A stretch of DNA of 60,491 nucleotides, filler included, from Hausera hauseri (Eukaryota), in NCBI GenBank assembly GCA_046269625.1. It is 11 parts of 11 records of this genome, joined end to end, with 100 filler letters (N's around TTAATTAATTAA, not from the genome) between each part and the next. Parts side by side here need not be neighbours in the genome. Positions count along the whole stretch, not along the records: positions 20,765 to 26,639 come from JBJURY010176194.1; 10 more parts are not named here. One strand, written 5' to 3'. Below, in pieces: positions 6,629 to 39,432 of this stretch; positions within the stretch are counted from its first letter, which is position 1, and each line of letters begins with the position of its first letter. The translations under genes and the position numbers were made by a program. The notes below the pieces were generated by a model that was given only the letters and a program-made list of their open reading frames with translations, was not told the DNA's origin and ran no database searches.

Positions 6629-9600
6629 TTATCTAGTAGCCTTATTAGTCTTGAACCAGATACATGGTTTCTTCCAGTCTGCGTCGTAAGCTTTCATTGT
6701 TTTAAGGTTTTCTACGTCTTTTCTTCCTTCCATAAGTCGTTGATCTTCCTTGATTTTTGCTTCTCCTGCATTCTTTTTGATTCCGTATACATCTGCTAAA
6801 CTAGATTCATCGTGCCACCATTGAGTCTTAGTCTTTGGAATATAAGAGGCGATTAATGATAATGCTAAAATTATCTGTACATTGGATACTGGTCTATTAA
6901 CTATAGCAGAGGTTTTTATTTTCTTATTTTGACTCGGGTTTAAATTCTGATCCTTAGATCGTAAATTATAATGCTTATTTGGTTTTATTTCTGTTTTGAC
7001 AACTCTCTGTATGGATACTACTTCTTCTTTTCCGCTTTTATTGATATATACGGTAGTTGGTGTAGTTCGGACAACCTCGTAGGGTCCTCTTCCAGTGCGA
7101 GTAAGTTTCAGGGACGTACCTTTCTTTGCTACTGGGTAGTGTACGTAAACCCAATCTCCTTTTTCTAAATCATGAGGTTTGGCTTTCTTATCATATTGTT
7201 TCTTGAACTGTTCTTGATATTCGAGGGTTAGTGTTTTCGCTATATCCCAGCACTTTTGTAATCTTGTTTGTAAAACTTCCGCGAAGTTAGGTTCTAAATC
7301 TTCCGGGTTTGCCTGATACGGAGTCATTCCTATGTCCGTAGGTAATATTGCTTCGCGTCCGTACATCATAAAGAATGGCGTAAATCCTGTGGCTGGGTGT
7401 GGGGTTGTATTGATAGCAAATTGCGTTCCTTCTAGGAATTCATCCCAATCCTTTTGATCCTTTGCGACCACTGTCGATAAGACTCGTATAACGGTTGCGT
7501 TCATACGTTCGACCATTCCGTTACATTGAGGGTGATATGCGGTCGTAGTTAATCGTTCGATTTCGAAAATTTTAGTAATCTTATCAAATAACTCGCTCGT
7601 AAAGTTTCTTCCTCGGTCAGTCAAGATTTGATCGGGAGGTCCATATCTGCAAATGATTTTTCTTACTACTGCATCTGCTAGAGTTTCTGCTTTCTGATCA
7701 ACTAGTGCTACTAATTCAACGAAATGTGTTAATCGATCTACACACGTCAAGATATATTTGTTGTTTTTATGGGTTGTAGGTAGTGGTCCTACTATATCCA
7801 TGGACATAGCCTGCATAGGCCTATCTGGCACGTTGATTGGTTTTAATTCGGCTATATAATTTTTCACTTTCTTTTGTTTCGTTGCACAAACTTCACATGC
7901 ATCTATCCAGTTTTTCACGCCGATATAGATACTAGGCCAATAATATTTATTCAATATTCTCTCCAATGTCTTTTTCCATGACATGTGTCCAGCTAAGTAA
8001 GAATCGTGTTCAGCCATTAATACTTCTGTTCGTAATCCTTTCGGAATGACTACAAGTTTCCGTCCTTTTCGTTCGTAATACAAAATATTATCTTGGTCTG
8101 ATGCATAGTATTTGTGTCCGTGCCTTTGTAGATGTTTCTTCAGCTGGCGTCCTTTTGGCTTTTCGTCTTGTTCGGCAAATTTGACTATCTGTTGAATAAC
8201 TTTATCTTTGGCTTGTTCTGAAGATATTTTGATCGTTTTATTCAGTGTCAAGGTACGCTGTCGTTCCACCAATTCTTCAAGTTGAGCTTTCTTCATTGTC
8301 GTAATAGTGCTTGTTTTTGTCTTAAGCCTTGATAAAGCATCTGCGTCAATATGCTTACTTCCGGGCTTATATTGAAATTCGATGTTGTACCGTGATATTT
8401 CTTCGATCCAACGGTTTAGTCTACACGTTGGGTTATTAGCTCGTCCTTTCAACGTTGTGACAGCCTTGTGATCGGTTACTATAATAATTTTCTGTCCGTA
8501 GACGTATACGTTGAAGTGTCTTAAGGCTTCTTTCACAGCTAATGTTTCTAGTTCGGTAACTGAATAGTTTTTCTCTGCTTTCTTAAGTGATCGTCCCCCG
8601 TATGCAATTGGATGTTCTAATTCTTCATCTTCTCGTTTTTGGGCCAATTCGTAGCCGATTCCTTCTTTGCTTGCGTCTGTTTTAATTATAAATGGTAAGT
8701 TGAAATCGGGATATCTTAATACTGGCTCGCTTGTTAAAATTTTCTTCATTTCATCGAATGCCTTTTGTTCCACATCGGTCCATTTCCATTTAATTCCCTT
8801 TTTTAATAATCGGTATAATGGCGCATTAATTTTCGAATTGTCCGGTACATAGGTGGCGTAATATCCGCATAATCCTAGCCAGTGTCTCAGTTCTTTCTGA
8901 TTTTGAGGCTCCATACAGTCCGATATTTTATTTAATAGAGATTTATCTGGTTTCGATCCTCCTTCTCCGACTATATGTCCGAGGTAAGATACGGCATTTT
9001 GTGCCCATTTACATTTCTTAGGATTTAATTTCAACCCCGCTTGCTCTAGTCGCATAAGAGTGTCTTCAATATCTTTTACATGTTCCTCTTCAGTTTTCGA
9101 CGCTATCATTACGTCATCTAAATACGCGAATGCGTGATCAAGTCCCATTAACATTTTATTCATCATCCTGGTAAATATAGCTGGGCCGGTTGTTATGCCA
9201 AATGGCATGACATTAAATTCATAGACTCCATCATGTGTTTTAAACGCTGTTTTATAACGATCATCTTCTTCGATTTCTACCTGCCAATAACCGGATTGTA
9301 AGTCCAGTGTGGTAAACCATCTTGCTCCTGACAGTCTATCTAATGCTTCCTTCACAGATGGTAGTGGAAATGAATCTTTCATCATCAGAGTATTTAGGGC
9401 TCTATAATCTATGCAAAATCGGTGTTTGGTAGTATCTTTCTTTTTAACCATCAATATGGGTGAATACCATGACCGGTAACTTGGCCGTATTATGTCGGCC
9501 TTCAGCATACGTTCTACTTCGGCAGTAATCTCCGGTCTTAATGAATGAGGTGGCGGGTACCATTTAGGCATTTTCTGTTCCTCTAAATCAATTTCCTCAT

Positions 9601-9907
9601 TGGAGCCAGGTTTCTTTTTTAGCGGTATTGTTAATCTCAGAGCCTTTGCTCGGCCTATGTCTTCTTCATTTTGGGCAATAATCGACTTGTATTTGCACAA
9701 AAGTTCGTAAAATTGACAATATACTTCTGGCGAAAATTTAGTTTCAACGTGAGGTGGAAATTCAGCATATTTGTATGGTTTCTCTTCGATCGTTATTGCT
9801 GATACTTTATAAGTGTGGCCCAATGTGGTATTGGCGTACAACTTTATGGGGGTCGGCGCATTATTTACCAACCTAATAGGGACTCGTCCTGTTGTTACTC
9901 TTGTCAA
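6629..9907 (-). CDS. pol: Ty3/Gypsy Pol (RT-RNaseH-integrase-GPY/F) with C-terminal hydrophobic extension; family A copy 1
   Basis: RT: RFCIDYRALN, LDLQSGYWQ, YLDD. RNaseH: TDAS..ELE..TDH. Integrase: HHCC (H..H..CEVC), DDE (SMDIVG, LTDRG, MVERMN), GPY. Uninterrupted 1092-aa ORF. Confidence 0.97.
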   Translation of the reverse strand: MTRVTTGRVPIRLVNNAPTPIKLYANTTLGHTYKVSAITIEEKPYKYAEFPPHVETKFSPEVYCQFYELLCKYKSIIAQNEEDIGRAKALRLTIPLKKKPGSNEEIDLEEQKMPKWYPPPHSLRPEITAEVERMLKADIIRPSYRSWYSPILMVKKKDTTKHRFCIDYRALNTLMMKDSFPLPSVKEALDRLSGARWFTTLDLQSGYWQVEIEEDDRYKTAFKTHDGVYEFNVMPFGITTGPAIFTRMMNKMLMGLDHAFAYLDDVMIASKTEEEHVKDIEDTLMRLEQAGLKLNPKKCKWAQNAVSYLGHIVGEGGSKPDKSLLNKISDCMEPQNQKELRHWLGLCGYYATYVPDNSKINAPLYRLLKKGIKWKWTDVEQKAFDEMKKILTSEPVLRYPDFNLPFIIKTDASKEGIGYELAQKREDEELEHPIAYGGRSLKKAEKNYSVTELETLAVKEALRHFNVYVYGQKIIIVTDHKAVTTLKGRANNPTCRLNRWIEEISRYNIEFQYKPGSKHIDADALSRLKTKTSTITTMKKAQLEELVERQRTLTLNKTIKISSEQAKDKVIQQIVKFAEQDEKPKGRQLKKHLQRHGHKYYASDQDNILYYERKGRKLVVIPKGLRTEVLMAEHDSYLAGHMSWKKTLERILNKYYWPSIYIGVKNWIDACEVCATKQKKVKNYIAELKPINVPDRPMQAMSMDIVGPLPTTHKNNKYILTCVDRLTHFVELVALVDQKAETLADAVVRKIICRYGPPDQILTDRGRNFTSELFDKITKIFEIERLTTTAYHPQCNGMVERMNATVIRVLSTVVAKDQKDWDEFLEGTQFAINTTPHPATGFTPFFMMYGREAILPTDIGMTPYQANPEDLEPNFAEVLQTRLQKCWDIAKTLTLEYQEQFKKQYDKKAKPHDLEKGDWVYVHYPVAKKGTSLKLTRTGRGPYEVVRTTPTTVYINKSGKEEVVSIQRVVKTEIKPNKHYNLRSKDQNLNPSQNKKIKTSAIVNRPVSNVQIILALSLIASYIPKTKTQWWHDESSLADVYGIKKNAGEAKIKEDQRLMEGRKDVENLKTMKAYDADWKKPCIWFKTNKATR

Positions 9908-11337
9908 AATATTACTGAGGATAATATTTGGATTAATGTCTTCTTGTGGCTCAAAAATACCGGTTGTTCGTCCTCTTCTAGAATTTGAGCGTAAATTAAC
10001 ATTTCAGTTCGCGGAGGTATGTTTTCGTCAACGGGAATCCATACTTCTCCTAATTTCCTTTCTTTCATTGTTTTAACTCCTTTTGCTGGTCCAAGTTCAA
10101 TCAATTTTCCAGTCTGTAAATTTATTGCAATGCTGGGTAGCTGTTTCAATATATCACAGCCTAATACTACATAATCGGTTAGCTGATCCATTATAGCAAA
10201 CTCGTGCTTAAGGGTTTGATCCATTAGATGAACTATGGGACTCCATTTAAATTTTGGCTTGGATTCTTGTCCGAAAGCTCCTATACTACTTGGATCTGAT
10301 GAGGATGCTGGTTGCAACTGTTTTCGTAATGTCGGCGGTATTGATTCTAGCTTGATAAATGATTTTTCCGAGCCTGTGTCCACTAAGGCATAAACTTCCC
10401 AGTCCTCAATGGTAACTTTTGTAAAGGGTCTTCCTTCCACAACTGTCCCGTAACAATTTGATACAGCTTTGGGGCGTCTAATCGTAGAAATCTTATGTCC
10501 GTTTATCGTTATTTCTGGTGATGAGACAATATTTTCGGTTAATTGCTTCAGTTCCTCGTTTGGGTATAAGTCGTTACTTACTATGGCGTTTTCATTGTTC
10601 CTGATTAATGGTTCTTGAATTCTTGAGTTTGGAAACGATCTCACTTGAGTTTCCCAGATCGTCGATTTGGATTTTATATTGCGAGGTATTCTTGATGAAT
10701 ATATTATTCCATGATCATCTTCTGCTCGTCGTTGGTTAGTAATTTGCATTTTCTTTAATACTCCATATTGTTTTGTTCCTTCATAAGGGTCTTCGAAACG
10801 GAAGGGTTCTTGGCAGAAGGCTGATCTATAAGACATAGTAGAAAATTTGTCACAATCTTCGTATATTGGGGCCGTCGGTGGCATGATAGGTATTGGTGCT
10901 GAGTACATTTTGTATCTATTTTGTAAAGGAAGCGCTTCTCCTCCCTCAGGCTCGTCATCATCTGAGCCATTTCTTCTAATTATCGTTTTCTTAGTTTTAC
11001 GTTTTGATAGAAAGAAAGGTCTTGACCGGCGTTTGTAATTGTGGTAGCCAACATGTCGTTCTACATCATTTTTCCATCGGTTTTCTTCGTAGGCCTTAAG
11101 CATTTTACCGAAGGGTGTGATAATTGCAGTTAAAATTTTGCAAGAAAATCCTGTTAGCGTAAATATTTCGTATCCATTTATAATCGCCTGAATTACGGCC
11201 TTTACTAATTGCACCATAAAATAGATTGCTAAGAATCCCGATGCGGCTTGTCCGAAAATTAAAAATCTTCCCCAAATTTTGTAGAGTATTTCCGTAGTTA
11301 CTCGTTGATAGTGATTTACTCCTAACAATGATTCCCA
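9904..11337 (-). CDS. Chuvirus-like glycoprotein C-terminus (TM) fused in frame to linker and retropepsin protease (5'-truncated)
   Basis: WGRFLIFGQAASGFLAIYFMVQLVKAVIQAIINGYEIF aligns with the C-terminus of the glycoprotein at 25145-25417. The same ORF contains the aspartic protease motif ALVDTGSEKSFI..VVLGCDIL. A 1-nt shift in a T-run near 9955 separates it from RT. Confidence 0.85.
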   Translation of the reverse strand, partial: WESLLGVNHYQRVTTEILYKIWGRFLIFGQAASGFLAIYFMVQLVKAVIQAIINGYEIFTLTGFSCKILTAIITPFGKMLKAYEENRWKNDVERHVGYHNYKRRSRPFFLSKRKTKKTIIRRNGSDDDEPEGGEALPLQNRYKMYSAPIPIMPPTAPIYEDCDKFSTMSYRSAFCQEPFRFEDPYEGTKQYGVLKKMQITNQRRAEDDHGIIYSSRIPRNIKSKSTIWETQVRSFPNSRIQEPLIRNNENAIVSNDLYPNEELKQLTENIVSSPEITINGHKISTIRRPKAVSNCYGTVVEGRPFTKVTIEDWEVYALVDTGSEKSFIKLESIPPTLRKQLQPASSSDPSSIGAFGQESKPKFKWSPIVHLMDQTLKHEFAIMDQLTDYVVLGCDILKQLPSIAINLQTGKLIELGPAKGVKTMKERKLGEVWIPVDENIPPRTEMLIYAQILEEDEQPVFLSHKKTLIQILSSVIF

Positions 11338-12285: not shown

Positions 12286-13572
12286 TTAGGTTGGCAACTA
12301 AGTAACTGCCGATTTAACACATAAATATCTGTGACTATCTTTTTTAAAGACTTCTGTCAATGTTATGATATTTTCCTTCTGACAATTGTTAGCCGTGACT
12401 CTTACCCTGCATTACAATCAAATTTGGCATATTTTTGTTTAAATTTGTCAACTTGGTGTCAATTTTAATATGGAGTGCAGAAACGAGCATTTTTGCCAAA
12501 TTTTACATTTTTATTTCCATAAAGGAAAGAACGCAGCGTAAGCAGCTAAAAGGTTATGTGATGTGTATGGTAAGGAAGCCTTAAAAGAAAGACAGTGCCG
12601 AAATTGGTTTAACAAATTTTGTTCTGGAGATTTTTCTCTCAAAGATGACCAACGTTCAGGTCGACCAGTTGAGCTTGATGATGACCGAATCAAAGTTATA
12701 ATCGAGTCGGATCGTCGTGGGACTGTGCGAGAGATTGCAGAGAGGTTGAATGTATCACATACATCGATTGAGAAACATTTAAAACATCTTCAACTCGCTA
12801 AAAAGCTTGATATGTGGATTCCACATGAATTGAAAGAAATTCATTTAACGAAGCGCATCAACGCTTGCGATTTGCATCTTAAACGAAATGAAGTCGATCC
12901 TTTTTTGAAACGAATTATCACTGACGGTGAAAAATGGATTGTTTGCGATAACGTCAATCGAAAAAAATCATGGTCCAGGCGTGATGAGCCACCGCAAACC
13001 ACTTCGAAAGCTGATATCCACCAAAAGAAGATTTTGTTGTAAATTTGGTAGGATTGGAAAGATGTGGTGTATTTTGAGCTGTTTCCAAGGAACCAAACGA
13101 TCGATACAAATATGTACTGTCAACAACTGGACAAATTAAATGCAGCGATCAACGAAAAACGGCCAGAAATTGTCAATCGCAAAGGTGTCACTTTCCATCA
13201 GGATAATGCTAGACCACACGTATCTTTGGTTACTCATCAAAAATTGATAGACCTTGATTACGAATTGATGTTACATCCACTATATAGTCCTGATCTAGCA
13301 CCATCATGTTACTATTTATTCCGATCTTTGCATAATTTCTTGAATGATAAAACTTTTGATAATTAGGACGCTGTGAAATCGCACTTGGTTCAGTTTTTTG
13401 CTGATAACGACCAGAAGTTCAACGAGTGTGGAATCATGAAGTTGCCAGAAAGATGGCAAAAGGTCATCGAACAAAATGGAACATATATCGTTGATTATGT
13501 TTCATTGCAAATATAAAAATAAAATCTTTTGTTTGTATGAAAAAATTGGCAATTACTTAGTTGCCAACCTAA
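12286..13572 (+). mobile_element. Full-length (1287 bp) mariner, mellifera subfamily, inactivated transposase
   Basis: About 30-bp TIRs (TTAGGTTGGCAACTAAGTAACTGCCGATTT / AAATTGGCAATTACTTAGTTGCCAACCTAA) with TA on the left. Motifs WIPHEL, FHQDNARPH, HPLYSPDLAPS, with in-frame stops. Confidence 0.95.
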
Positions 13573-16108
13573 CATATCTCGAGATCTCTTCAATCCATCT
13601 ATTCAACCTACACGTAGGGTTCTTTGCTCGTCCCTTTAAAGTTGTAACTGCCTTGTGATCGGTAACTATTATTATCTTCTGTCCATATACGTAAACGTTA
13701 AAATGCCTTAAGGCTTCCTTTACTGCTAACGTTTCTAGTTTTGTCACTGAATAGTTTTTCTCTGCTTTCTTCAGGGAGCGTCCTCCATAAGCGATTGGGT
13801 GTTCTAGTTTTTCATCTTTGCGTTTCTGTGCCAATTCATATCCGATACCTTCTTTACTTGCGTCTGTTTTAATAATAAACGGTAAGCTAAAGTCAGGATA
13901 TCTCAGTACCGGTTCGCTAGTTAGTATCTTCTTCATTTCGTCGAACGCCTTTTGTTCAATCTCGGTCCATCTCCATTTCATTTCCTTTTTTAGTAATCGG
14001 TATAACGGTGCATTAATGTTTGAGTTATCTGGTACGTAAGTGGCATAATAACCACATAGACCTAACCAATGTCTTCGTTCCTTTTTGTTCTGAGGTTCCA
14101 TACAGTCTGAAATTTTATTCAGTAATGATTTGTCAGGCTTAGATCCTCCTTCGCCAACTGTATGGCCAAGATATGACACGGCGTTTTGGGCCCATTTGTA
14201 TTTTTTGGGTATAGTTTTAACCCAGCTTGTTCTAATCTCATAAGAGTGTCCTCAATATCCTTCAGATGCTCCTTTTCGTCTTTTGATGCAATCATTACGT
14301 CATCGAAGTACGCAAATGCATAGCTGGTCCAGTGGTAATTCTAAACGGCATAACGTTAAATTCGTATACGCCATCATGAGTTTTAAACGCAGTTTTATAA
14401 CGATCTTCGTCTTCAATCTCTACTTGCCAATACCCGGATTGTAAGTCCAGAGTAGTAAACTATTTTACTCCTGAGAGTCTGTCCAAAGCTTCTTTTACAG
14501 GTGGTAGGAGAAAAATCCTTCATCATAAGAATATTCAACGCTCTATAATTGATACAAGATCGATGTTTCGTGGTTTCTTTCTTCTTGACCATTAGAATAG
14601 GTGAATACCAAGATCTGAAACTTGGTCAAATTATATCGGCCTTTAACATACGTTCTACCCCTTTAGTTATTTCCGGTCTTAGGGAATGCGGCGGCGGATA
14701 CCATTTTGGCAATTTCTGTTCCTCGAGATCGATTTCATCATTAGATCCGGGCTTTTTCTTAAGTGGTATAGTTAATTTTAACGTCTTTGCTCGGCCAATG
14801 TCTTCTTCGTCTTTTGCAATAATTGACTTATAGCGACATAATAGTTCGTAAAACTGGCAATAAGCTTCTGGCGAAAACTTCGTATCGACGTGTGGTGGAA
14901 ATTCGGCGTACATATACAGTTCCTATTCAACCGTTATTGCTGATGCTTTGTAAGTATGTCCTAGAGTAGTGTTAGCATATAATTTTACTGGAGTTTGAGC
15001 ATTATTCACTATTTTTACCGGTATTCGACCTGATGCTACTCGGGTCAATATTTTGCTCAGTATTATATTCGGGTTTAGCGTTTTTTTGGCTCGAAATATA
15101 CTGGTAAATCTTCGTCTTGACAGATTTGTGCAAAGATCAATAATTTCGTTCTAGGCGGAATGTTTTCGTTGACTGGAATCAAGACTTTTCCGGATTCTCT
15201 TTATTTACCTTAGTTCCTTTTATCGGTCCGAGCTCGATTAGCTTCGAGGTATTCAGATCTATCGCGACGTTTGGCAGACGTCTTAATACATCATATCCTA
15301 ATACTACGTCGTCTGTTAAGTGTTCCATTATAGAAAATTCATGTTGAAATGTCTGTCCCATTATTTTAAGAGTAGGATTCTACTCGAATTTCGGTCTTGA
15401 TTCTTGTCCGAAAGCTCCTATACTTCCGGGATCGGTTGTAAGTGGTAGTCGTAATTGATTGCGCAACGTTTTCGGTATCGATACGTCTTTTATGAATGAT
15501 TTCTCTGATCCGGTATCTACTAATGCGTATACTTCCCAATCGTCAATAAACAATTTGGCGAAGGGTCTACCTTCTTTTATCTTAGGTTGTTTAACGACTA
15601 ATATTTTGTACCCGTTCACGCTAATTTCTGGTGATTTATTCTGGGCTACTTGTCTTAATTTTTCAATGGGATACAATCCATTATTTACACTGTTTTCGTT
15701 GTTTCTATCCGGCGTATTGATTAGCGGTTCTTGGTTGTTTTGGTTATGGAAGGATTGCATTCGTGGATTATCCCATATTAATGATTCAGTTTCTATATTC
15801 CGCGAAATCCTTGGAAAGTATGTTACCTTGCGATCATCTGCCGGTTGGCGGCATAATTCGGATTTTTCCCTGGTTCGGTACATTTTCCGTAACACGCCGT
15901 ATTGTTTTGTCCCTTCATAGGGATCTTCATAACTGAAAGGCTTTCGATATATTTCCGAACTATAGGAGTTAATAGATCTCTTATCGCTGTCTACATATTG
16001 TCGTGCCAAAGGGGGTAGCATCTGTAAAGGCGGCCTAAGCGCCTTCCGATTGCTTATCTTGGAGACCGCGTCTCCTCCCTTAGGCTCATCATCATCCGAA
16101 TCGTTTTT
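13573..16108 (-). pseudogene. Gypsy family A copy 2: linker-protease-RT-RNaseH, frameshifted, cut by the mariner
   Basis: Near-identical peptides to 6629-11337 (ALVDTGSEKSFI, KWYPPPHSLRPEI, TDASKEGIG). Homology stops at EEISRY, at the mariner TIR. Confidence 0.93.
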
Positions 16109-16640: not shown

Positions 16641-18330
16641 TCAGACGTATCCATATGCTGTGCCAACTTAGCAGAGTTCTCATAAATGTCCTCCGTGTAG
16701 ATGTGATAGATAAAACTATCAGTATCCATATACATCAGCTGTATGTACTTGAATATGGGGACCATGATGTCATAGTGGAATTTGTACATCAAGGTCGTTG
16801 ACAGGTCCAGTATTGCCATACCCACATATGTGGGCTTGTTGAATTGCAAGGATGTTTTTGGCATATGGATGCTGACTACGTTCTCCGCATATATGGTGCT
16901 GCTGTGGAAGTTTGGCTTGGCAATGAGCTTCTTTACCCGCTTTCATTCAGAGACCAGTTCGATGTAGATCCTGTTGCGGATGTTTTCCATGATCTTGCCA
17001 AAACGCAGTTGTTGTAAAGCTTGAATTGATCCTTCTCAAAGTCGTTCTTGGCATTTTTTCGCAGCTTCGTATTAAGACCGATATATGGCTTCAGCCAGTT
17101 GGACTGGCTGAACTTCAGGGCCCGATGGATCTTAGTAATGCGGAGTCCATTGCTGACAGCTTGCTGGAGATTTATGTAATGGACTACATATCACTCCCTA
17201 TTATCCAGATGGCAAGGCAGCTTTCTATGCTTTCCATGGAGCGGAGACTTTCTCTCAGGGAGGAAAGGCAGCTGTTGATGCCTTGTGTGGATAGAAGCCG
17301 GATATTCCATATCCACCTCTAGTATGAAGCCAGGTCCAGTATAGGTATGTTTTCAGGATGCTCGACCCACTTGAAGTCATAATATGGCAATGGGACGCCC
17401 ATTACCCATCCATACAAGTCGTTGGCATCCAGGTATGATATATATGAGTATTCCTTGTATGGATCATACTAGGCCATATACTTGTTGTTGGCCTCACTAT
17501 ACCTATGAATGGCCTGGCATATTCCGCCTCTAATGTCTCTCTCAATCATGAGGATCATGTCGTAATTTTTTATGATCTGCATTCTAATACCGATATAGCG
17601 CAGAATAGCTGCTCAACTCATCCCTGGAGCCGTGAAGGAATGAGCTGAATCCAATGCATTGCTCTTTATCGTAACATCCTTAAAGCTGTCAAAAAGATTC
17701 GTCAGAAGCAGCACGTCCGTCTAGAGGTATATATAGCTGTATTCTCCTCATTTTCGGCATTGGAATGCATACCAGATGTTCTAAGCATGCTGGTAGTCCT
17801 CATCACTGATACCGCTATCTGAGAAGATATTGTAAAAGTCCTTCTTGGCCGGCAATGAGGTCTCGTCCAGTGTTCCCCATGATGTTATATAGTCATAGGG
17901 AAACACGCCTTTCTTTTAGCAAGGTCAAATGTAGTGGGGAAGAACCGCTTCGTCTCCTTGAGTTCATCTGCAGGGAGGTTCTTCACTAAACTGTCCAGTG
18001 AAAACGACAGGAAACGAAAGCTCTCTATGAATCGAAGTTTAATGCGGTCCACATAATTAGTGTAAGTGATATATTTCTCCACAATGTTTTGTATCACATC
18101 TATATTACCATCAATGTTGCCTAATTCACGGATTATTAAATGGGAATCATAGCCACTGAGATTATGGAACACTACAGGCACATACGTACATGTTTTGCAA
18201 CCTAGATTGCAGTTGTTTCATGCTGCCCCTCCATATGCACCTGTAAAATGGCAGTGATCCTTGACTTTATAATTATCCTCGGTGAAGGACTTGTCGCACA
18301 AGTAACATGCTGTTGCCTTGTGCTATTCTT
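16641..18330 (-). pseudogene. Polinton/adintovirus PolB, degraded
   Basis: PVVFHNLSGYDSH (exonuclease), YLDANDLYGW (motif A), YMDTDS (motif C), with many frameshifts. Confidence 0.9.
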
Positions 18331-19880
18331 ACTCTTGAAGTAATGATTAAACGTTTGTCGTTATATTTGAAGAATGTAGCCGCTGATGCTTATAACGAGC
18401 TTCCTAACGATGAAAAGAAATCTTGGTCATCCTTGGTAGGAGGATTGAACCGAAAATTATTGCCGACAGTAACATCGCAACAGAACTTATGGCATTTAGA
18501 AATAGGGTGAAACAGAAGGGTGAATAGATAACACAGTTTGCATTTGCATTAAAGAAACTAGCTAATGGTTATATGAGCACCTTGAGAATAGCTAATGTAG
18601 CAAAAACTAAAACCGAAGCTGAACGCGAACTCGCAGAAAAAGCAACTCCGTCAGATTTTGACATCATGATGGCGACGCATTTAATTAATGGTATTTGGTC
18701 CCGAGATTTAGTGAAACAGTTGATTTTGGCCAGACCTGAGAATTTTGAAAGGACTTTACAACTGCCCCAAGACTTAGAAATGGCACTTGATAGATATGAC
18801 AGACATAATGATAGAAATGATAGAAATAATAATCGAAATGGTCGTAACGATAAAAATCGCAATGATAATCGCGGAAGACATGATACACGATTTAAAAGTA
18901 ATAGAAATGATGAAAATAAAAACAGTAATAACGACTATGGGAATAGTCGAAACAATAATTATGTTATCGATCGAAATATGAATAAGTTGAATCCCAATTC
19001 GGATAGAAATCGAGGAAACTACAAAGGTTCTAATTATCAAAATCGTTACGATGATAATCAAAATAATGATAGTCGACGAAATATAGATAGTACGCAAAGT
19101 TTGCCGAACCGGTACAATAGAAGCACAAATATGTCTAAGTCACCTATTAATGAAGGCGGTAGACAGAGAGTCAACAGAAATGGAAATTTAGTTTGTTTCA
19201 CTTGCAGTAAGAAGGACATATTGCAATGTCATGTCCAAACCCGCGTAGCCTAATAAGACTAGTATGATCAACGTTAACGAGAACTTAGAAGCGAAATATG
19301 GTGTTCATGGAGATACAGGTACTATTATCGACATACACGATTTGCGAAAATTTCTAGACGCTTAGCCTGAGACTACTAATCCACAAATTCTGATGGCCAG
19401 AAGAGAGTACGGAGATAAACTAAGATTATTAGAGGTCTACCACGGTTTAGCCGAACCAGAAACAGAATACGAGCATGCTATAGCACCCAAGCTAATCGAT
19501 ATGACAGGGAAGAAGAGTATTCCAATAATTAATAAAACGGTAGAAAAACAAGGAACTTTGACATAAGTCGACTTAGATGCAGAGCCTGAGTTCACAATTG
19601 ATAAAGCAAAAGAGTATCGAAGACGATATAGCCAAAAAAGAATTTATGGAACCATTAATACTTAAAATTACGAAAAGTAGAGGCCATAGCTCTTGACTTA
19701 AGTCGAAACGTAGAATTCTTTCATTATCTCAAGTAACTAAAGAAAAATTAGAAGAAGTAAAAGATATTAAAATCGCTGTAGAAAGAGACGCAAGACCTAG
19801 TTTAGACACACCACGAATTGGTTTAAACCCATCGAGTTGGACAAGACCGTAAAGTCGATTAACGAAATTAATGAGGACAA
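18328..19880 (+). pseudogene. gag: Gypsy gag fragment (same family as 37665-39056)
   Basis: EVMIKRLSLYLKNVAADAYNEL..WSSL, an N/D/R-rich tract and the knuckle VCFTCSK.GH, colinear with the gag of contig 8. Confidence 0.88.
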
Positions 19881-20764: not shown

Positions 20765-23700
20765 ATGCCGTGTAATTCTTTACGTAACTTAGTAAGCAGT
20801 CGTATTTTTGTAATTCGAGATCCCTTTCTTAGTCACGCCAAGGGATTAACTGAATCCCTATTAAGTATTGTTTTGACAATGGTTTTGACACATAAAAGTT
20901 TACACATCTTGTAGGTAACATTAAATTTTATACTGCTCAATAAATAATCTTCGGCTATAGCTAAGGGTGTCGTATTTTAGCTTGCTGTATTTCTGTTTCT
21001 GTCATTTTGGTCAAAGCGCCTGGTGCTAGTATACAAATTAAAAGGAGAAAATACTTTATTAACCATAATATTTTGTTACTTGAGATCCTCGCAATTTTTT
21101 TCTCTACCATACTGCTAACATATCCCTGTTCATCATTCCTTAGTTTACTTTCTTTAGCCGCCGGTTTACATATATTAACATGAACTTTAAGTGTCGTATT
21201 ATTCTTTTTAAGGCTTATGTTGGGTACGTCTACCTTTTCCACTTCATACGGTCCTTTATATGGTCTATCTAGCTTTGATGTCTTGTCCTTTTGCTTAAGG
21301 GTGTGTATAACATCATTTTATCTCCTGGTTTTATTTTGGATTGCTTCGTTTTTTCACCATAATACTTCTTATGTTTTGTTTTATAATCTTTCTGATTATC
21401 CTTTACTATTTTGTAAGCTAACTGGAGTCTTTCTTGCATCAGTTGCTTGTACTCTTCTATTTCCATTAAATGAGAAGTAGGATTTACATTGAAATCCAAA
21501 TAAATTGGTAGTCTGGCATCTCTTAGATACATCAGGTAAAAAGGTGTCTCTTTTGTGGCTTCGTGTACTGACGTTCGGTTTACGAATACACAGGCACTGA
21601 TATATTTATCCTAGTCATCTTGTCTGGTATTGACAACTGTTTGTAGTTTACTTTTTAGGTCTCCAATATATCGTTCTACCATTCCGTTATTCTCAGGGTG
21701 TCCTGGTGTCGATCGTAATTTTAATATTCGCATAATGTCATAAATAGCTTGCATTACGTTTCCCGTCAAGTTTGATGCTTGATCCGTTAATAATATTCTT
21801 GGGTCTCCATAATTAAATATTATATTCTCCACGAATTTTTCGGCGATATTTCCCACCTTAATGTCCTGAATAGGTAATGCTACAACCCATCGTGTAAAAT
21901 AATCTAAAAATACTAGAATATATTTATTTTCGTTTGTAGTTAGTGGTAAGGGTCCGATTGTATCCATTGCTGTGAATTCGAAGGGGACTGGTGGGTTATC
22001 CCATACTTTTAAAGGGGCTTTGAATTTAGATCCGGTATTCTTTCGTGTGGCACATAGTTTACAGTTGTCACACCATTCCTGCGTATGTTTTATCATGGAT
22101 GGCCAAAAATATTTCCTTTTTAATTTATTAGTTGTCTTTCTTGATGATTGAAGCCGACCTAGTAGCCCGTCGTGATACTGTGTTAACAATATTGCTCTAT
22201 TTTTCTTGGAAATTACAAGGGCTAGTCCATTCTGATGAATGTAGTATAGAAATTCTTCTTTTTCTTCATATGCTTCGCCGAATCTGGCTAGGTGACGCGC
22301 AAGCCCTTTATCTGTAGGAATAATTCTGTTTTGCATAAAACTTCTGATAGCTTGTATCTCAATATCTTCCTCTTGATTTTCTTTTATCTTTTCTGGTGAT
22401 CCGTCCATACTCCATACTGCTGCTACTATAGCTTTATTCGTGTTTGATTTTTCTGGCATTCTCGATAGATAATCGGCATTCGCATTATGTGTTCCCGGTT
22501 TATATTGGAAATTTATAGTATATGGTTGCAATTTGAGAGCCCATCTTAATAATCGGCTATTTGGATTGTCGTGTTCTTTTAACCATTGCAATGGACGATG
22601 GTCAGTGTATATTACTAACGGTTTGTTTTCACTGATATAAGGTGAAAATATATTTAAAGCGAATATTACTGCAAATAATTCCTTTTCAATTGTTGCGTAT
22701 TTCTTTTGATGCTTGTTTAGCTTTTTCGATGCATATGCTACTGGATGTTCCTTTCCATCCTCGCATTTCTGTGATAATACTGCTCCCACTCCATAATCAC
22801 TTGCGTCTGTAGCTAATATGAATGGTTTATTCATGTCTGGATAAATTAGAATGGGGGCACTCAACAATTTTTCCTTAAGCATTTCAAATGAATTCTAACA
22901 TTCACTTGTCTATATTACCTGTTCTAAGTCTTTACAAAGTAGTTCATATAGCGGTTTGGCTATTTTACTGAAATCTTTAATAAATCTACGGTAATAATTT
23001 GCCAATCCTAAGAATCTTCGCAACTCTTTAACTGTAGTTGGCTTTGGGAAGTATTTAATTTTTGCAATTAATTTCTCTTGCGGCTTAACCCCATTTCTGT
23101 CTATCCTATGTCCCAGAAAGTTGACTTCTTGAGCAACTTAACATTTCTTGGGATTTATTTTGAGTCCCATTATTTCACATCTATCGAACAGATCCTGTAG
23201 ATCTTTTAGATGTTGTTCGAAATTTAAGGATGCAATTATTACGTCATCAATATATACCATCACATGTAATGCGTCCAGTAATAATAATTCAGTTCCTCTC
23301 TGAAACGTAGGTGGTCCGTTATTTAATCCGAAAGGCATTCTGTTAAACTCCCATAATTCTTCGCCTATGGAAAAAGCTGTCTTTTGTTTGTCTTCTTCCT
23401 TCACTTGTACTTGCCAATATTCTTTCTGTAAATAAATAATTGTAAATATTGTAGATCCATGTAATTTATCTAATATTTCATCTATGCTTGGTAACAGATA
23501 CGTGTCGGTTTCGGTAATTTCATTGAGAGCTCTATAGTCGATACAAAATCTCATTGCTCCACCTTTTTTCTTTACCATTACTACTGGGGCAGTCCATGGA
23601 GAACAGCTTGGTCGTATTATTTTATTATCGCTCATTTCTTTTATAATTTTCCGGGATTCTTCCTTCTTATCATACGCGAAGCGATAAGGCCGTTTCTTTT

Positions 23701-24829
23701 TTGGTTTATCTTGTCCGTTTTTTAGTTTAATAGAATGTTGTATAACATTCATAACTCCTAAGTCATAATCATTTTGTGCAAAGTGATCATTATTTTTTAT
23801 TAGGAGTTGTTGTAACTTAGTCTTTTCCTCGCCTGTCAAAACTTTACAGTCCTTTAGTTTCTCATCCCAATTGATAATACTAGTTTTACCTTTTGTCGCC
23901 CCTTTGTTCGTTGCGTTATTTAATTTAGCTTCCATCATTTTTTCAATTGTATCTACTTCTGAGATGACAGAATTAGTGCCTTCCCTAAAACTTTCTAGCG
24001 TATCTTCTGCTATTATTACACATCCCATTCTGGTATTCCTTCTTAGTTTCATTTCATTTCGTCCCGTGTTGCAAATCCGTAGATGGATTTTCCCGTTTCT
24101 TATTCTGTCTATATGAGGTGCTATGAGTATCTCATACTTTTCCATGGTTACTAGGGATGGTTCGAAGTATACGTTTTTACCAATAGATTTGCCTTCTATT
24201 TTTCCAGATACTACCATTTCAGAACGAGGTGGCATTACAATGTCCTTTGTCAATGACACTGCTCCATTATGCTGTTTCGTATTGAATCTTCTTATCTGAC
24301 CTGTACTTAAGTCGATGTAGGCATCTTCTAACTGATTCAGGACATCACATCCAATTAATATTTCATTTGTTAAACGTTTTGCCACAATTACAGTATGGTT
24401 AATTACTTGATTGCATATTTTAATTTTGGCATCGAGGACTGTCCTTATTTGTTCTTCAGTGCCAAATGCTGCGACGTTTATTAACGTCTCGGAAGGTTTT
24501 TTTAGTTTCTTTACTAATTCCGGGGGCAACTGGTTTCTTCCCATTATTGTGGTTGTAGATCCCGTGTTTATTAGAGCGATCATTGGGTACCCATTTATGT
24601 CAATCATTATTTCCGGCCTTGTTGATGACTGTTTTTCATAATCCTCACTTATTTTACAAGTGGTATCGCGATTATAGGGCATCGGGTTTTCGTCATAATT
24701 ATGTTTCATCCTTAATACTTGGTATATTGGGTACATTTCTTTCTGATCTGGAAGGTATTTTTGCTCTGGCGTTATTGATTCCATAAATCGGGGTGACGAT
24801 CCCGTATATTGGGGTGCTGTTGGAATCAT
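20765..24829 (-). pseudogene. pol: Gypsy family B pol (PR-RT-RNaseH-IN-GPY + hydrophobic extension) with nonsense mutations
   Basis: ALINTGS (protease, D>N), RFCIDYRALN, YIDD, ATDASDYG, AMDTIGPL, TDQA, MVERY. ORFs 23138-24829, 21611-22882 and 21269-21532 share one frame. Confidence 0.95.
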
Positions 24830-26639
24830 TACGGCTTGACAATTGTATTCATCGGCGAAATTTATTTTCGGTAATTGTGACAGTAATGTTTTCTTGTATT
24901 TTCGATTTCACGACGTCCATGAAACTCGCCTCAGTCTTTTTATATATTTATTGGTAGACTTACTTACATTTGGGGAAGTATTATTATTGTCATCCTCCTG
25001 TCCATTAAGCGTACTGTATGGTGAGTTATTCTCTAAATCTTTATTTTTGTCTTTGAGTATTCTTCTTTTTCATTTTGCGTCATGTCTTGCTAGAAAACAA
25101 CTATCTGCTGCTGGTATGAAGGCGATTAAACTTTTCCATGAGCATCAATCTGCTGCGTGGATCTCATAAGCTTTACTGAGAACTGTAAATATCGTTCGCA
25201 GTGTGCTAATTATGAAATATATAGCTAAAAATCCTGAGTCTCCTTTGCCAAAATATAAAAACTTTCCCCACATCTTTTCCACTACATTTCGAGTGACCTT
25301 TATAAGGTAATCTCGACCCATCAGATTTTCCCATTGTGGTGATCCTTCACCATCCCACATCACTTTTCTGGTTAATTCTGTTATTACTCGTTGTCGCTGT
25401 TGTGGAAATAACAGCATCCGTCTATATCTTCTAAATTCTGTTCGGTATAGATTTTTTCCTGGGGTATAACGGTAAGTGGTTCAAATTTATGATTTTTCTG
25501 TAAGTTTATTAAACTGAGTGTTTCGGGCGGTGTTACACGTTCCCGTTTCGGCATTCTTATCCATTGATCGTTTATCTTAAACATTGGCTACATATGTGCA
25601 ATTTATCAATAAGGTTGGCTTAACTTCAGCGTCTAAAAGAATTCTTGTTACTGGCATCACGTATCTTGGCTCGTTATTATAGTCCACCGGTAGTTCAGTC
25701 GTACATTCCGTAGTGGGTCTCAATTTAACTTCTACTTTCTTGCATTCTATTGTAATCAATACTTCACCCATAATCCTTCCAATTACTCCTTCGCCAAAGG
25801 GCATTACTGGTGCTACCATATCTGGATTAGTTATCACTACAGCCAGGTTATTCCTCATTATTTCGTAATTCAGCTTGCATTCGTTCATTATTATTTCTCT
25901 GTATAAACTTCTGATCTCTGTTCTTATCTAATTGATTAAGAAATCAATTTTGTTATCAAAATACTGCGTTAACTTTATATCCCTTTTATCTAATTTCATT
26001 CTGGCACCATGGATTTCTTTTAATGACAAATGTATGCCTTTGTAATTGGTTTTGGATATATCTTCATTACATTTTCTTATCGTTCCGGGAATTTTAAGTC
26101 ACATCATATCCTCAGGATTTTCTGAGTATAACACCGTAGCAACTTCCGTCATTCTTACGTCTTTTTGTCCTTCCTTAAAAGTAGCTGTTTCTTTTTCTGC
26201 TCTTTCCTACCGTTTTATTGAACTTTCCTTCTTTTAGTAACGTAAGATAGCATTTACCCATTGATACTTCCCACGTCATTTTAGATTCTCCGGTGTCGCA
26301 TTCGCCGTTTTCATACTCACATTCACTCATGGTAGTCATTATTTTGGTTTGGGAATCAAACAGTGCTTCATATTCTTTTAATTGGACTTGATAATCCTCA
26401 ATGGCAACTGTTCTTGGCGCGATAATACCTCCTACATCATAATTTATTCCAACATAATAGCCTTCACTAGATTTGTTAATCTTTCCAGCTATGAAAATTC
26501 GAGTGTATTTTATTTTATTCCGTACAGCTAGTATTTGAGCGTTTTGGACAGTGATCACTCCTATTTTAAATGCATCCTGACATTCAGCTCGTGAAATAAT
26601 TATCGGTTCGAACGGAGTTGTAGGCTCTACTATGGCAGA
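24830..26639 (-). pseudogene. env: Chuvirus/Jingchuvirales-type (class III, gB-like) fusion glycoprotein (env), upstream of protease
   Basis: Cys pattern and motifs typical of chuviral G: ISRAEC, CEYENGECDTGESKMTW, CKLNYEIMRNNLAVVITNPDMVA, GEVLITIECKKVEV..CTTELPV..PVTRIL, FKINDQW, IYT, LFPQQR, WGKFLYFG..GFLAIYF. Confidence 0.85.
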
Positions 26640-27130: not shown

Positions 27131-30100
27131 TTACAATAATGCCACATGTCCATTAGGTAGTGTCTGAATTCCGTCTTCAAGAATGTGCCTCTTGTTATCG
27201 AACCAATCGAGACTTTTCTTCCGCAGCGCAACTGTAGCAATCTGATGTACCCGGGACTGGATCCTTTTCATATCGCTGACTATGTGACTTTGCTCCCGCA
27301 ACACTCTCAAAATCTCCAAAGCCATTGTCTTTAGCTAATGTTGCCCTTTGAACTCCCTTGGCTCGCTTCTTTACCTGACCACTTATATCGATGGCGTATA
27401 TTGTTTATCTCAATGCCACCAAACGGGTGATGATCTTCCCATTCACCTCGTTTTAGAACTTCCCGAGGACCATCTTGTTGGTTATTGAATAATTTGGATG
27501 ATCCTTCGGATAGTATGAGGTATCCATATACTGCGCCAATTTTGCATACTTTTCAAAGACATCATCTGTGTGGATCTGGTATATGAAACTGTCCGTATCT
27601 ATGTACATTAGCTGGAGCTACTTTAATGTAGGGGCCATGATGTTGTAATGAAAATCATACATCAATGTCTTGGATAGATCCAATATGGACATGCCCACAT
27701 ATATAGGCTTGTTAAACTCAAGTAATAGATGCTTACCAGGTTCTCTGTGTAGATTGTGCTGCTGTGGAAGTTGGGCTTAGCGATGAGTTTCTTTTCCCGC
27801 TTCCAGTCACATACCAGCTCAATGTTTATCCGGTTCCGAATGTTCTCCATAGTTTTGCCAAAGACCGAATTGTTGTAAAGTTTGAATTGGTCTTTTTCAA
27901 ACTCGTTCTCGGCATTGGCCCTCCATTGGGTATTGAGGTCTATGTATGGATTCAGCCATTTGGACTGGCTGAACTGTAGGGCCCGATGAATCCTGATGAC
28001 TTGGAGACCACTTTGGATGGCCTGTTGGAGATTTATGTAGTAGGATACATACCTTTCCCTGTTTTCAAGGTGACAGAGCAGCTTCTTATGCTTTCCATGG
28101 GGCAGAGACTTGCTCTCCGGCAGAAATCGCAGCTGCTCATGCCTTGTGAGGTATCTATATGGGTATTCTACATCCATCTTCAGTATATAGCCCGTATTTA
28201 CAGTGGGATTTAGGTCTAATATTTGGATGTCTTCAGGATTCTCGACCCATTTGAAGCTATCATAGGGCAATGGGTTACTCATTGTCCATCCATACAAGTT
28301 GTTGGCATCCAGATATGATATATATATGAGGATGCCTTTGATGGATCATAATCTTCTATGTATTTGTTGTTGGCCTCACTGTACCTGTAAATGGCCTGGC
28401 ATATTCACCCATGATGCTTCTTTCAACCATAAGGACCATATTGTAATCCTTCAATACCTGGAGCCTTATGCCGGTATAGCGCAGAATCGCTGCCCAGCTC
28501 ATTCCTGGAGCTGTAAAGAAATGGCCTGGATCTAATTTATGACTCTTAAGGATCACATTCCGGAAGCTGTCGAAGACATCTGTAAGCAGCAGAACATCTG
28601 TGAGGAGATAGATATCACTGTATTCCCTTATTTTCCTGCACTGGAAGGTTTGCCATACTCTTTGGGCATGCTATAATCAGCATCGCTAATATGACTGGAT
28701 GAAAACTGACTATAAAAATCCTGCTTGACCGGTAATACTTCTTCATGCAGTGTTTCCCATAATGTTATATAGTCATAGGGGAACACGCCTTTCTTCTTGT
28801 CGAGGTCAAATGCAGTGGGGAAGAACCTCTTCATCTTCTTGAGTTCTTTTGCAGGGAGGTTCTTCACTAAATAATCCAGTACAAAAACATGAAGCGGAAG
28901 CTCTCTATGAATCGAAGTCTAATGCGGCCCACATGCTTAGTGAAGGTAATATATTTTTCCTCACTGTTTGGAATGACATCAGTGTTCCACTCAATATTAC
29001 GCAGTTCCCGAACAATAAAGTAGGAGTCATAGCCACTGAGATTATGGAAAACTATAGGCACATATTTGCATGTTTTGCGACGTAAATTTCAGTTGTTGCA
29101 TGCTACACCTCGATATTTGCATGTAAAATGGCAATGATCTCTGACTTTATAATTATCCTTGGTGAAGGGCTTGTCGCACAAGTAACATGTTGTTGCCTTG
29201 CGCCACTCATCTTCTTGCTACTTCGACATGCTCATATTATCCTTATGCTGTTGAAGTATGTTTTCAAGTCCTTTCATGAAATGTGCTGCTGCACCTGGAC
29301 CTCTGAACAGAAATGGTTCATTGTTCAGTCCTTTGGCATACATACAATATGGTGAGAGTTCATGATATTGGTATGCTGTCGTGCTGCTATGTTGGAGATT
29401 AGGGCTGCAGCTGTGAACTGGGCTGAGAATGGCCTCAAAATCACAATAAACGACAATCGGCACCTTCTGCGTCTTCTCGAACTCCTTGAATTCCAGGTAA
29501 TCCTCCTTGGGGAATTCTGCTCGGATGCAATAGTTTGTATTACAGTAGGTCTTGTGTGTCACCAGCATTTCTGCGGCTGTGTCCCCATTAAAATGAGTAA
29601 AGTATCTCTTGCATATTTCCAGCCTTGATTTATGCTTGGATATTTGGGATTTTACGAGGTGCTCAAAATTCTTGATAAAAATAAAATGTCTGATTTCTCC
29701 ATCATCTAGCACGAGTATATCCCTGTGATCCTTCAATTTCTTCTTGCACATATGTAGTGGATAAAATTTGTCCTCCTCCAATCCGAAGATGTTGACTGAG
29801 ATGTTGTTCACGCTATTAAATTTCACGACTTCATCTAGGCTCAGCGGGAATGAAGTACAGCTGAAGTCGCATGTGTGCTGCACTTTGTCATATATTCAAA
29901 TTCGGAAAGCATTATGTTGATCCTGGACTAGTTTTGATAAAATGGCATACATGAAACACATATTGTCATTATTATGGACATTAACACATGTCCTTTCTTA
30001 ACTATTCACTCAGGAAGCAGTATGTAGGACCTGCCTCTCATGGGAGAATACTTGTGTACATGCACAAGTAATCTCTTTATTGTTGATAAAGTCCAACCAC

Positions 30101-37664: not shown

Positions 37665-39056
37665 TTAGCTACTTTTTCGACTAAACTCAGGATCTGCGTC
37701 TAAGTCGACTGCCGACGGTTTATTGCTTATCGGAATACTCTTTTTCCGTGTCATATCACTCCGTTTCGGTGCTATCGCGTGTTCATATTCAGTTTCTGGT
37801 TCTGCTAAGCAATGGTACACTTCTAGTAATCTCAGTTTATCCCCGCATTCTCTTCTGGCCATCAGAATTTGTAGGTTAGTGGTATCCGGTTGAGCATCTA
37901 GGAATTTTCTCAAATCCTGTATATCGATGAGAGTGCTTGTATCTCCACAAATGCCATACTTTGCTTTTAAATTCTCATTGATTCTAATCATACTAATCTT
38001 ATTTGGCTTAGTAAATGAGACATTACGTGAGTTTGGGCATGACCTTGATATGTGTCCTTCTTTGCCGCAAGTAAAACAAACCAAATTGCCATTTCTGCCG
38101 ACTCGCTGTCGACCGTCTTCGTTCACTGTTGACTTAGATCTATTTGCACTCTTATTAAACTGGTTTCGCAAACTTTGCATACTATCGGCAGTTCGTTTAT
38201 TATCATTGCTTTGGTTATCACCGTTTTGATTCGAGTAGTTTGGACCCTTATAATTTCTTCTATTTCCATCCCAGTTTGATCTGTTCGTATTAGCATAATT
38301 ATTACCTCTGCCATTTCTGTAACCGCCATTATTATTTCGATTCCCATAATTTCTGTTACCTGCAAATCGTCCATCGTCTCTTTCACGATTATCATTGCGG
38401 TCATTCCGATCATTATTCCTGTCGTTTCTATCATTATGTCTGGCATATCTATCTAGCGCCATTTCTAAGTCTTGAGCTAGTTGTAACGTTCCTTCAAAAT
38501 TCTCAGGTCTAGCTAAAATCAACTGTTTAACTAAGTCTCGTGACCAAATACAATTTATTAGTTGCGTCGTCATCATCACATCTAAATCTGGTGGTGAAGC
38601 CTTCTCTGGGGCGTCACGTTCTGCGTCCGATTTAGCTTTAGCTATGTTGGCTATACGCAATGTGTTTATATAACTGTTAGCGAGTTTCTTCAACGCAAAT
38701 GCGAATTGGGTTACTGATTCACCTTTTTGCTGTACTCTATTCTGAAATGCCATAAGCTTTTGCTGCGGCGTAACTGTTGGCAGTAATTTGCAATTTAATG
38801 CTCCTACCAGGGAGGACCAAGATTTCTTCTCGTCATTAGTGAGCTCACTATAAGTGTCAGCGGCTAAGTTTTTCAAATATAACGACAATCGTTTTATCAT
38901 TACTTCAGGAGTGAGGCTGGCACCTTCTGCGTGCAATTTATAAGTTCTCAAGAATTCATTAAGCCCGTCTAGGTCTTCATCATATGCTGGCAGGTTTAGA
39001 GAGTCAAAGGTAAAGATGTCCAGTTTCTGTGCTACTGGTGGATTATCAGTTGCCAT
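37665..39056 (-). CDS. gag: Gypsy-type Gag (capsid region, N/D/R-rich tract, CCHC knuckle)
   Basis: FQNRVQQKGESVTQFAFAL (MHR-like QxxxEsv) and CFTCGKEGHISRSC; lies downstream of an LTR and PBS. Confidence 0.92.
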   Translation of the reverse strand: MATDNPPVAQKLDIFTFDSLNLPAYDEDLDGLNEFLRTYKLHAEGASLTPEVMIKRLSLYLKNLAADTYSELTNDEKKSWSSLVGALNCKLLPTVTPQQKLMAFQNRVQQKGESVTQFAFALKKLANSYINTLRIANIAKAKSDAERDAPEKASPPDLDVMMTTQLINCIWSRDLVKQLILARPENFEGTLQLAQDLEMALDRYARHNDRNDRNNDRNDRNDNRERDDGRFAGNRNYGNRNNNGGYRNGRGNNYANTNRSNWDGNRRNYKGPNYSNQNGDNQSNDNKRTADSMQSLRNQFNKSANRSKSTVNEDGRQRVGRNGNLVCFTCGKEGHISRSCPNSRNVSFTKPNKISMIRINENLKAKYGICGDTSTLIDIQDLRKFLDAQPDTTNLQILMARRECGDKLRLLEVYHCLAEPETEYEHAIAPKRSDMTRKKSIPISNKPSAVDLDADPEFSRKSS

Positions 39057-39432
39057 TTTATTTACGTTATTTGGTTCTAAATTTGCTTTATTTGCTTTAG
39101 GTTTTTCGAGTGCTATTTTAAACTGTTTATTTTGTGCGAAAACGTCTTATTTAATCTTATTCTCGGAATTTGAAAGTTTATCTACCTTTTTTGTTTCTCT
39201 GTTTATATTTCTACGCGTTTCACGCATAGGTGAATTGTCTTTTAATATATGGTTTATTCCTGGCCTATCAATGTTTGTTCACAAGTTTTGTTTACTTATC
39301 CCCGTAAGAATAGCCTATATACCCAATTTAAATTTCCGATTTTGAAAAAATCAAATTACTCGATGTAATGGCGCTGTTCGCCGATGTGTAATTATTTAAC
39401 TCTGATACGTAAAGTTTAGCTAGGTACAGACT

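Follow-up and report, generated by a model that had tools for sequence, protein, structure and literature searches.

The genome of Hausera hauseri very probably holds a decayed Ty3/gypsy copy in which a chuvirus-related glycoprotein (G) stands in frame before protease, reverse transcriptase, RNase H and integrase (PR-RT-RH-IN), and which is a likely deep-branching relative of the Burro and GAG-ENV-POL elements. The window analysed (the whole stretch of 60,491 nt) is composed of unlinked contigs joined by N-linkers, and the focal element lies on a single contig, 20765-26639. Pfam profiles placed the G pieces first on its minus strand, with three collinear matches to PF24664 (Monjiviricetes_fusion), followed by RVP and RVT_1 within 23141-24907 and by RT_RNaseH, Integrase_H2C2 and rve within 21614-22894 (see table). 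The order given in the earlier note, a chuviral-G-like sequence before PR-RT-RH-IN on one contig, was thus confirmed. With stops read as X, a single frame from 26203 to 23141 joined the C-terminal G piece to the protease ORF. Because the contig begins inside G, it lacks the N-terminal end of the glycoprotein as well as gag and any 5' LTR.

Table. Features of the focal contig and of two further contigs in the window
Feature	Position	Strand	Evidence or remark
Fusion glycoprotein, N-terminal half, cut by contig end	26178..26639	-	PF24664 profile 104-225, E 1.1e-6
Fusion glycoprotein, central part	25425..26203	-	PF24664 322-420, E 2.6e-24, on 25580-25927
Fusion glycoprotein, C-terminal part and predicted membrane anchor	25148..25417	-	PF24664 479-578, E 2.6e-14
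In-frame G-to-protease linker, three TGA codons (25147, 25072, 24910)	24623..25147	-	Frame read with X at stops
Aspartic protease, active-site motif degenerate	24326..24622	-	PF00077 E 5.9e-8; motif scan
dUTPase-like domain between PR and RT, probable, weak	23981..24268	-	dUTPase, E 1.6, sole PDB match at E<=10
Reverse transcriptase with YIDD; a single stop, at 23140	23050..23575	-	PF00078 E 1.4e-24
RNase H, Ty3/gypsy type	22520..22837	-	PF17917 E 2.9e-39
Integrase core and H2C2 zinc finger, interrupted by a stop at 21613	21290..22207	-	PF17921 E 6.7e-13, PF00665 E 1e-9
Integrase tail (other frame), GPY/F-type motif, then signal-peptide-like hydrophobic stretch	21003..21305	-	15-residue hydropathy 2.67
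Family A, separate contig: G C-terminus and protease, then RT-RH-IN	6632..11337	-	Pfam
Gag-like ORF, one zinc knuckle, separate contig	37668..39146	-	PF00098

The G pieces matched PF24664 with E values down to 2.6e-24, and BDV_G gave an additional match to 25580-25927 (minus strand, E 7.5e-6). The N-terminal piece (26178-26639), which the contig end cuts and from which the signal peptide is missing, was 27-34% identical to intact relatives. The central part (25425-26203) was interrupted by three in-frame stops, and a short segment of it, at about 25425-25500, lay in a different frame. The C-terminal PF24664 match spanned 25148-25480 on the minus strand, and residues of 25148-25417 aligned with the region that holds the hydrophobic anchor in relatives. 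An AlphaFold model of G read with X at stops (412 aa), built from 10 sequences only, had a pLDDT of 49.5 and a pTM of 0.24, and a wide fold search with this low-confidence model returned generic coiled-coil/helix matches only (Z<=6.6), which is uninformative either way. The G profile had no matches among PDB sequences at E<=1, and shallow word-index searches for G relatives gave three and two matches.

The focal pol has the Ty3/gypsy PR-RT-RH-IN order, and its RT matched Ty3 RT best in PDB (E 9e-41), followed by caulimovirus-type (1e-30) and foamy (2e-11) RTs. BEL/Pao-specific Pfam families gave no match in the focal pol at E<=0.01, and gypsy-type RNase H and H2C2 integrase were present. The GPY/F motif, described as a C-terminal hallmark of Ty3/gypsy integrases (PMC12440569), was found in the integrase C-terminus of both the focal tail and a second family in the window (family A). 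The region 23981-24268 between PR and RT had no Pfam match. The signal-peptide-like stretch after the integrase corresponds to the start of a second membrane protein in intact relatives; the post-integrase tails in the window had no Pfam match, and tblastn searches of the window with the membrane-protein portions from the C-terminal ends of intact relatives gave no match. Comparison of the post-integrase domain with fibronectin-III and cytokine-receptor clusters gave atlas scores all below 0.9, a lead only.

The G C-terminal ORF lies in the PR-RT frame and is separated from it by the three TGA codons of the linker, as the earlier note had described. Its view that two of these codons are products of decay also held: the family-A ORF has ordinary residues at the alignment positions of the codons at 25147 and 25072, and the first of these positions is a nearly invariant column. 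In the focal copy 231 residues separate the anchor motif from the protease motif, and in family A 295; of 14 intact relatives measured, 13 have 128-215 residues there and one has 664. Programmed read-through or recoding that governs the ratio of Env to Pol in a working element would fit the finding that all three junction stops are TGA, but we consider it extremely improbable, because seven further in-frame stops (TGA, TAG and TAA all occurring; 10 stops with the junction ones) and four frame breaks (near 26200, 25490, 25425 and 21290) fall within G, RT, RH and IN, because the junction is stop-free in family A and intact relatives, and because run X1 contigs show small indel differences at two of the frame breaks or next to them (four contigs each). 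Judged from the sequence, decay is the supported reading of the focal stops, and this copy is unable to make an Env-Pol protein.

Family A carries the G C-terminus and protease in one stop-free ORF (9907-11337) and RT-RH-IN at 6632-10003, both on the minus strand; its pol is 38% identical to the focal pol at the amino-acid level over 866 residues and belongs to the same pol clade. A database search with the G C-terminus plus PR as query, which favours env-first matches, yielded 66 matches, from which 21, mostly long or two-stretch, were chosen for scanning. G was followed by protease within one protein in 12 of the 21, and G-PR-RT-RH-IN occupied a single open frame in P0002, P0003, P0067, P0070 and L001 (an ORF of 3,426 aa; L001 showed no LTR pair). 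The domain order recurs elsewhere, and the Env-Pol polyprotein proposed in the earlier note is supported by these five relatives and by the stop-free junction of family A. Hydrophobic segments were present on either side of G and after IN in P0002 and P0070, and gag lay upstream of env in P0010 and P0017. The gag-like ORF in the window (37668-39146) aligned with the N-terminus of the G-bearing P0027 at 27% identity across 107 residues (E 3e-9). A scan of metagenome contigs reduced 596 pattern matches to one locus, and scans of genome contigs and viral contigs gave no confirmed relatives.

These comparisons also bear on the alternative that G, as an independent endogenous viral element or through a chimeric assembly, lies beside a gypsy pol by chance. 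The related contig pieces from run X1 (6,996) reached all 30 bins, those of G as well as those of pol. The assembly is made of short contigs, none of the run X1 pieces listed covers the whole focal stretch, and the summed depth drops around the linker, all of which would suit a chance neighbour; the same junction nevertheless occurs in family A, only 38% identical in pol, and in over half of the scanned database proteins, and the frame is preserved across it. The chance reading is largely refuted, and we assign it a negligible probability.

The pol tree separated nine env-first or linked rows, as a single clade (100/99), from 36 other gypsy rows, and the env-first clade had an SH-aLRT of 93 in a 125-row pol tree; the focal pol nested among gypsy-type rows in these trees, which were built without BEL/Pao or Copia rows. 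Both window families branched outside the clade's seven database rows, as its deepest branches. In the G tree, the focal G grouped with 11 other env-first G sequences (100/99), apart from five stand-alone G sequences, one being a chuvirus G. Since both trees group the focal copy with env-first relatives, G is, on phylogenetic grounds, an inherited part of the element and no chance insert. The trees contain no named Burro or published errantivirus sequence, and the likely tie to Burro and the GAG-ENV-POL elements comes from the architecture and from a by-eye comparison of short motifs with rows of the supplements.

The earlier note had instead proposed an independent capture of a chuvirus G that created an enveloped Metaviridae lineage with env before pol; on this reading the lineage would have no kinship with Burro or other published elements. 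The deep position of the window families, the identity of just 28-36% between the focal G and that of long env-first relatives, and the occurrence of env-first elements in several clades, the GAG-ENV-POL elements being not monophyletic (PMC13524379), are in favour of such a capture. However, G and pol both fall with the wider env-first clade; the chuvirus G P0065 (24% identity over 367 residues, E 7e-24) is less similar to the focal G than every env-first G compared; and clade members carry Burro-type extras, namely ankyrin repeats in P0067 (4,844 aa) and a weak Bcl-2 match, under the Pfam cut-off, ahead of G in P0011. We regard an independent capture as very unlikely, and even if real it would have produced an architecture that is already published.

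In GYPSM1/Burro from planarians (Repbase Reports 2007), gag and pol flank an in-frame, mononegavirus-like env, and, as in the focal element, env precedes pol within one polyprotein; its env, like the focal G, matches mononegavirus fusion glycoproteins, it has a dUTPase-like domain between PR and RT, for which the focal element has a weak candidate (PDB E 1.6), and copies decayed by stops and frameshifts, as the focal one is, are on record (PMC6431247). Burro as described is a giant element with gag, LTRs and MATH, BIR, ubiquitin-like, BCL2 and ankyrin modules, none of which is visible on the focal contig; the focal element, known only from a truncated contig, has one protease and no ankyrin match between G and RT. 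GAG-ENV-POL Ty3/gypsy errantiviruses with an HSV/gB-type, chuvirus-like env have been catalogued in Nematoda, Bryozoa and Platyhelminthes (PMC13524379). They share with the focal element a Ty3/gypsy pol and a chuvirus-like env before pol; their env is class III, whereas the focal G is class III by prediction only, and six Schmidtea env rows of that article have short motifs in common with the focal G, by eye. The survey was restricted to intact elements, whereas the focal copy is decayed. The words 'polyprotein', 'in-frame' and 'fibronectin' had no match in its main text, so that the fusion and a post-integrase membrane protein are not discussed there in those words. Nematode non-canonical endogenous retroviruses have a flipped env/pol order according to the same article, and are presented by title as a metavirus that captured an RNA-virus glycoprotein (Sacco et al. 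2022, doi 10.1099/jgv.0.001739). They were described from nematodes, and their likeness to the focal element is one of description. Their gag-env-pro-pol ORF is reportedly continuous; the term 'gag-env-pro-pol' itself was not found in a literature search. Anakin likewise carries a chuvirus-related glycoprotein (PF24664 type) on a retrotransposon, but it has a BEL/Pao pol and occurs in mosquitoes, unlike the Ty3/gypsy focal element (PMC7642597, PMC10084718). Troyka was considered as a counterpart and rejected, since it encodes no env (PMC12440569). As env-first gypsy elements are published and catalogued (PMC6431247, PMC13524379), the earlier claim of an undescribed architecture fails.

We infer that the active form would make one long polyprotein, running from Gag through accessory domains, where present, to an internal signal peptide, the G ectodomain and its membrane anchor, and then through PR, dUTPase-like domain, RT, RH and IN to a second signal peptide, a small ectodomain and an anchor. 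Judging by hydropathy alone, on which both processing and topology are modelled, the signal peptidase of the host would cut Gag away from G and thread G into the ER, and the G anchor would bring the chain back to the cytosol; Pol would therefore start tethered to the G tail at the membrane, from which the element's protease would cut it loose. G, as a predicted class III fusogen, may allow enveloped particles to pass between cells. A bolder reading, which we hold to be unlikely, is that the env-first lineage comprises enveloped retroelements with two glycoproteins, a class III fusogen before Pol and a separate small membrane protein cut from behind the integrase. The window families would then be the deepest branches of this lineage and would come from parasitic flatworms, a group without elements annotated in the published survey, whose flatworm elements come from three free-living species (PMC13524379). 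An atlas search with an NCBP1-like ORF placed the host no more finely than Eukaryota. The small protein is possibly fibronectin-III-like and an attachment protein.

The focal element establishes no new architecture; if the two-glycoprotein reading were true, a Metaviridae element would show a paramyxovirus-like split of attachment and fusion. Enveloped gypsy elements that make env and pol as a fusion form a small class on which little work has been done; the two divergent families add to it, and they confirm G and pol as long-time travelling companions.

Analysis of the focal contig (20765-26639, minus strand), a single contig within a window of unlinked contigs chained by N-linkers, showed that the feature described in the earlier note, a chuvirus-related fusion glycoprotein (G) ahead of a gypsy pol and sharing its frame, is real and was correctly described. 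Three collinear pieces match Pfam PF24664 (Monjiviricetes_fusion), and are followed by protease (PR), reverse transcriptase (RT), RNase H (RH), H2C2 zinc finger and integrase (IN) core domains. In a single frame from 26203 to 23141, read with stops as X, the C-terminal part of G runs into PR and RT, and this reading bore out the three TGA codons reported to separate G from PR. The element is a decayed copy, with 10 in-frame stops and four frame breaks over G, RT, RH and IN, and a degenerate protease motif. Because the contig begins within G, gag and LTRs are out of view. The best solved-structure match of the RT was Ty3 RT (E 9e-41), with caulimovirus-type and foamy RTs behind, and a GPY/F-type motif is present at the integrase end. 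Its Pfam family and published work suggest a class III fold for G.

The G-PR junction is ancestral. In family A, a second G-bearing gypsy family in the window (contig 6354-11337) with only 38% identity to the focal pol, the G C-terminus and protease occupy one 477-residue ORF without a stop. A search of 1.84 billion representatives with this ORF gave 66 matches, of which 21, mostly long or two-stretch ones, were scanned for domains; G followed by protease in one protein was found in 12, with RT and RH too in 3, the query itself being biased towards matches joining G and protease. Of five additional cluster members, P0067 (4,844 aa) and P0070 (3,003 aa) show the order G-PR-RT-RH-IN, as does a 3,426-aa frame of another relative, L001; gag-type motifs lie ahead of G in P0010 and P0017. 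The G anchor motif and the first protease motif are 231 residues apart in the focal copy; for the 14 relatives with a measurement, the distance is 128-215 in 13 and 664 in the other, and one further relative is without the motif. A search for related contig pieces (run X1) returned 6,996, covering 30 of 30 bins along the focal stretch, G and pol alike, with a depth that does not equal copy number and none of the pieces listed spanning the whole stretch; this coverage points to a multicopy family, G included. A complete eukaryotic-type G-PR-RT-RH-IN polyprotein, P0002 (HBK71150.1), is annotated as hypothetical and assigned to a Flavobacteriaceae MAG, probably through binning contamination.

A tree of 125 RT-RH rows placed the two window families in one group with eight rows that are env-first (G before pol) or linked (SH-aLRT 93). 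The env-first/linked group received 100/99 support in a tree of 45 RT-RH-IN rows (9 env-first/linked and 36 chosen from neighbouring groups), where the window families were the two deepest branches of the group. Among 20 G rows, the tree grouped the focal G with env-first G proteins (100/99) and separated it from the five stand-alone ones, which include that of Wufeng shrew chuvirus 2; the focal G shares 28-36% identity with the former versus 22-24% with the latter. Since the trees are unrooted and without named Burro, BEL/Pao and Copia rows, what they show is that G and pol were inherited together; they give neither the direction nor the date of capture.

Features of the focal contig, the rest of the window and relatives
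Location	Strand	Feature	Remarks
PF24664 profile 104-225	minus	G piece 1	E 1e-6
PF24664 profile 322-420	minus	G piece 2	E 3e-24
PF24664 profile 479-578	minus	G piece 3	E 3e-14
21003-21305	minus	signal-peptide-like stretch after GPY/F	focal copy
6632-7060	minus	signal-peptide-like stretch after GPY/F	family A
L001:8900-10279		signal-peptide-like stretch after GPY/F	
P0002: 368-386, 931-949, 2257-2275, 2539-2557		hydrophobic segments/anchors, in order: ahead of G, G anchor, post-IN, C-terminal anchor	
L001:2-10282		3,426-aa frame: G, three protease domains, RT-RH-IN, C-terminal membrane protein	membrane cassette between protease domains
L001:10617-12107		RNase T-type exonuclease ORF	downstream of 3,426-aa frame
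11438-16108		second family-A copy	more decayed; 74% nucleotide identity
33917-35736	minus	third gypsy pol, unrelated	no G match
36794-41424	minus	region with gag-like ORF (one zinc knuckle)	separate from focal contig
40374-41081		RING-finger ORF preceding gag-like ORF	resembles Burro accessory ORFs
18320-19539	plus	stretch related to 36794-41424 gag-like region	
43209-44832	minus	NCBP1-like (MIF4G-like) piece in long ORF	possibly retrocopy
49462-50928	minus	plexin cytoplasmic-domain piece in long ORF	possibly retrocopy
16785-18306, 27331-29895, 52805-56538		protein-primed DNA polymerase B element copies (Polinton-like)	decayed; 73-88% alike

In intact relatives, G is preceded by a hydrophobic segment and followed by an anchor, IN is followed by another hydrophobic segment, and a further anchor lies at the C-terminus; of these, the focal copy retains the anchor of G and the segment behind IN. 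The signal-peptide-like stretch following GPY/F in both window families also occurs in the relatives P0002, P0070, P0075 and L001, and in P0002, P0070 and L001 it opens an ectodomain ending in the C-terminal anchor. Of the 9 clade rows, 5 had a post-GPY/F 15-residue hydropathy of 2.0 or more, as against 1 of 95 other gypsy rows, an imperfect control in that the motif picked there was often far from the C-terminus. We propose that one polyprotein would be threaded through the ER membrane, with Gag cytosolic and freed by signal peptidase, G in the lumen, Pol cytosolic and tethered to the G tail until cut loose by the element's protease, and a second small membrane protein after Pol. A lineage with two glycoproteins, placing attachment and fusion in separate proteins, seems unlikely.

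The earlier note's background, which places chuvirus G capture in BEL/Pao (Anakin) elements, agrees with an arthropod survey in which no clear capture by gypsy was seen (PMC10084718). Its suggestion of an undescribed architecture did not hold up, as Burro/GYPSM1 and the elements of PMC13524379 are already published. According to Arkhipova and Yushenova 2019, planarian Burro/GYPSM1 has a 4,873-aa polyprotein in which Gag is joined by accessory modules; its env region, lying between BCL2 and PR, matches fusion glycoproteins of mononegaviruses, and PR and RT have a dUTPase-like domain between them (PMC6431247). Both the size of P0067 and its ankyrin content match Burro, and a weak match to Bcl-2 lies directly ahead of G in P0011. 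PMC13524379 likens the env of GAG-ENV-POL elements to Chuviridae glycoproteins, argues for ancient acquisition and cites Sacco et al. 2022 for nematodes; six Schmidtea env rows from its supplement, compared by eye only, have short motifs in common with the focal G. The novelty lies in the two families, both divergent, and in the membrane protein that follows integrase, of which no discussion was found in the portions searched of the literature on such elements. In the available part of the PMC13524379 genome table, 23 of 24 cestode, monogenean and trematode rows (24 of ~50) have no ENV-POL env match, whereas 5 of 5 free-living flatworm rows have 5-253; therefore, if the host is parasitic, the known range of env-first elements would be modestly widened.
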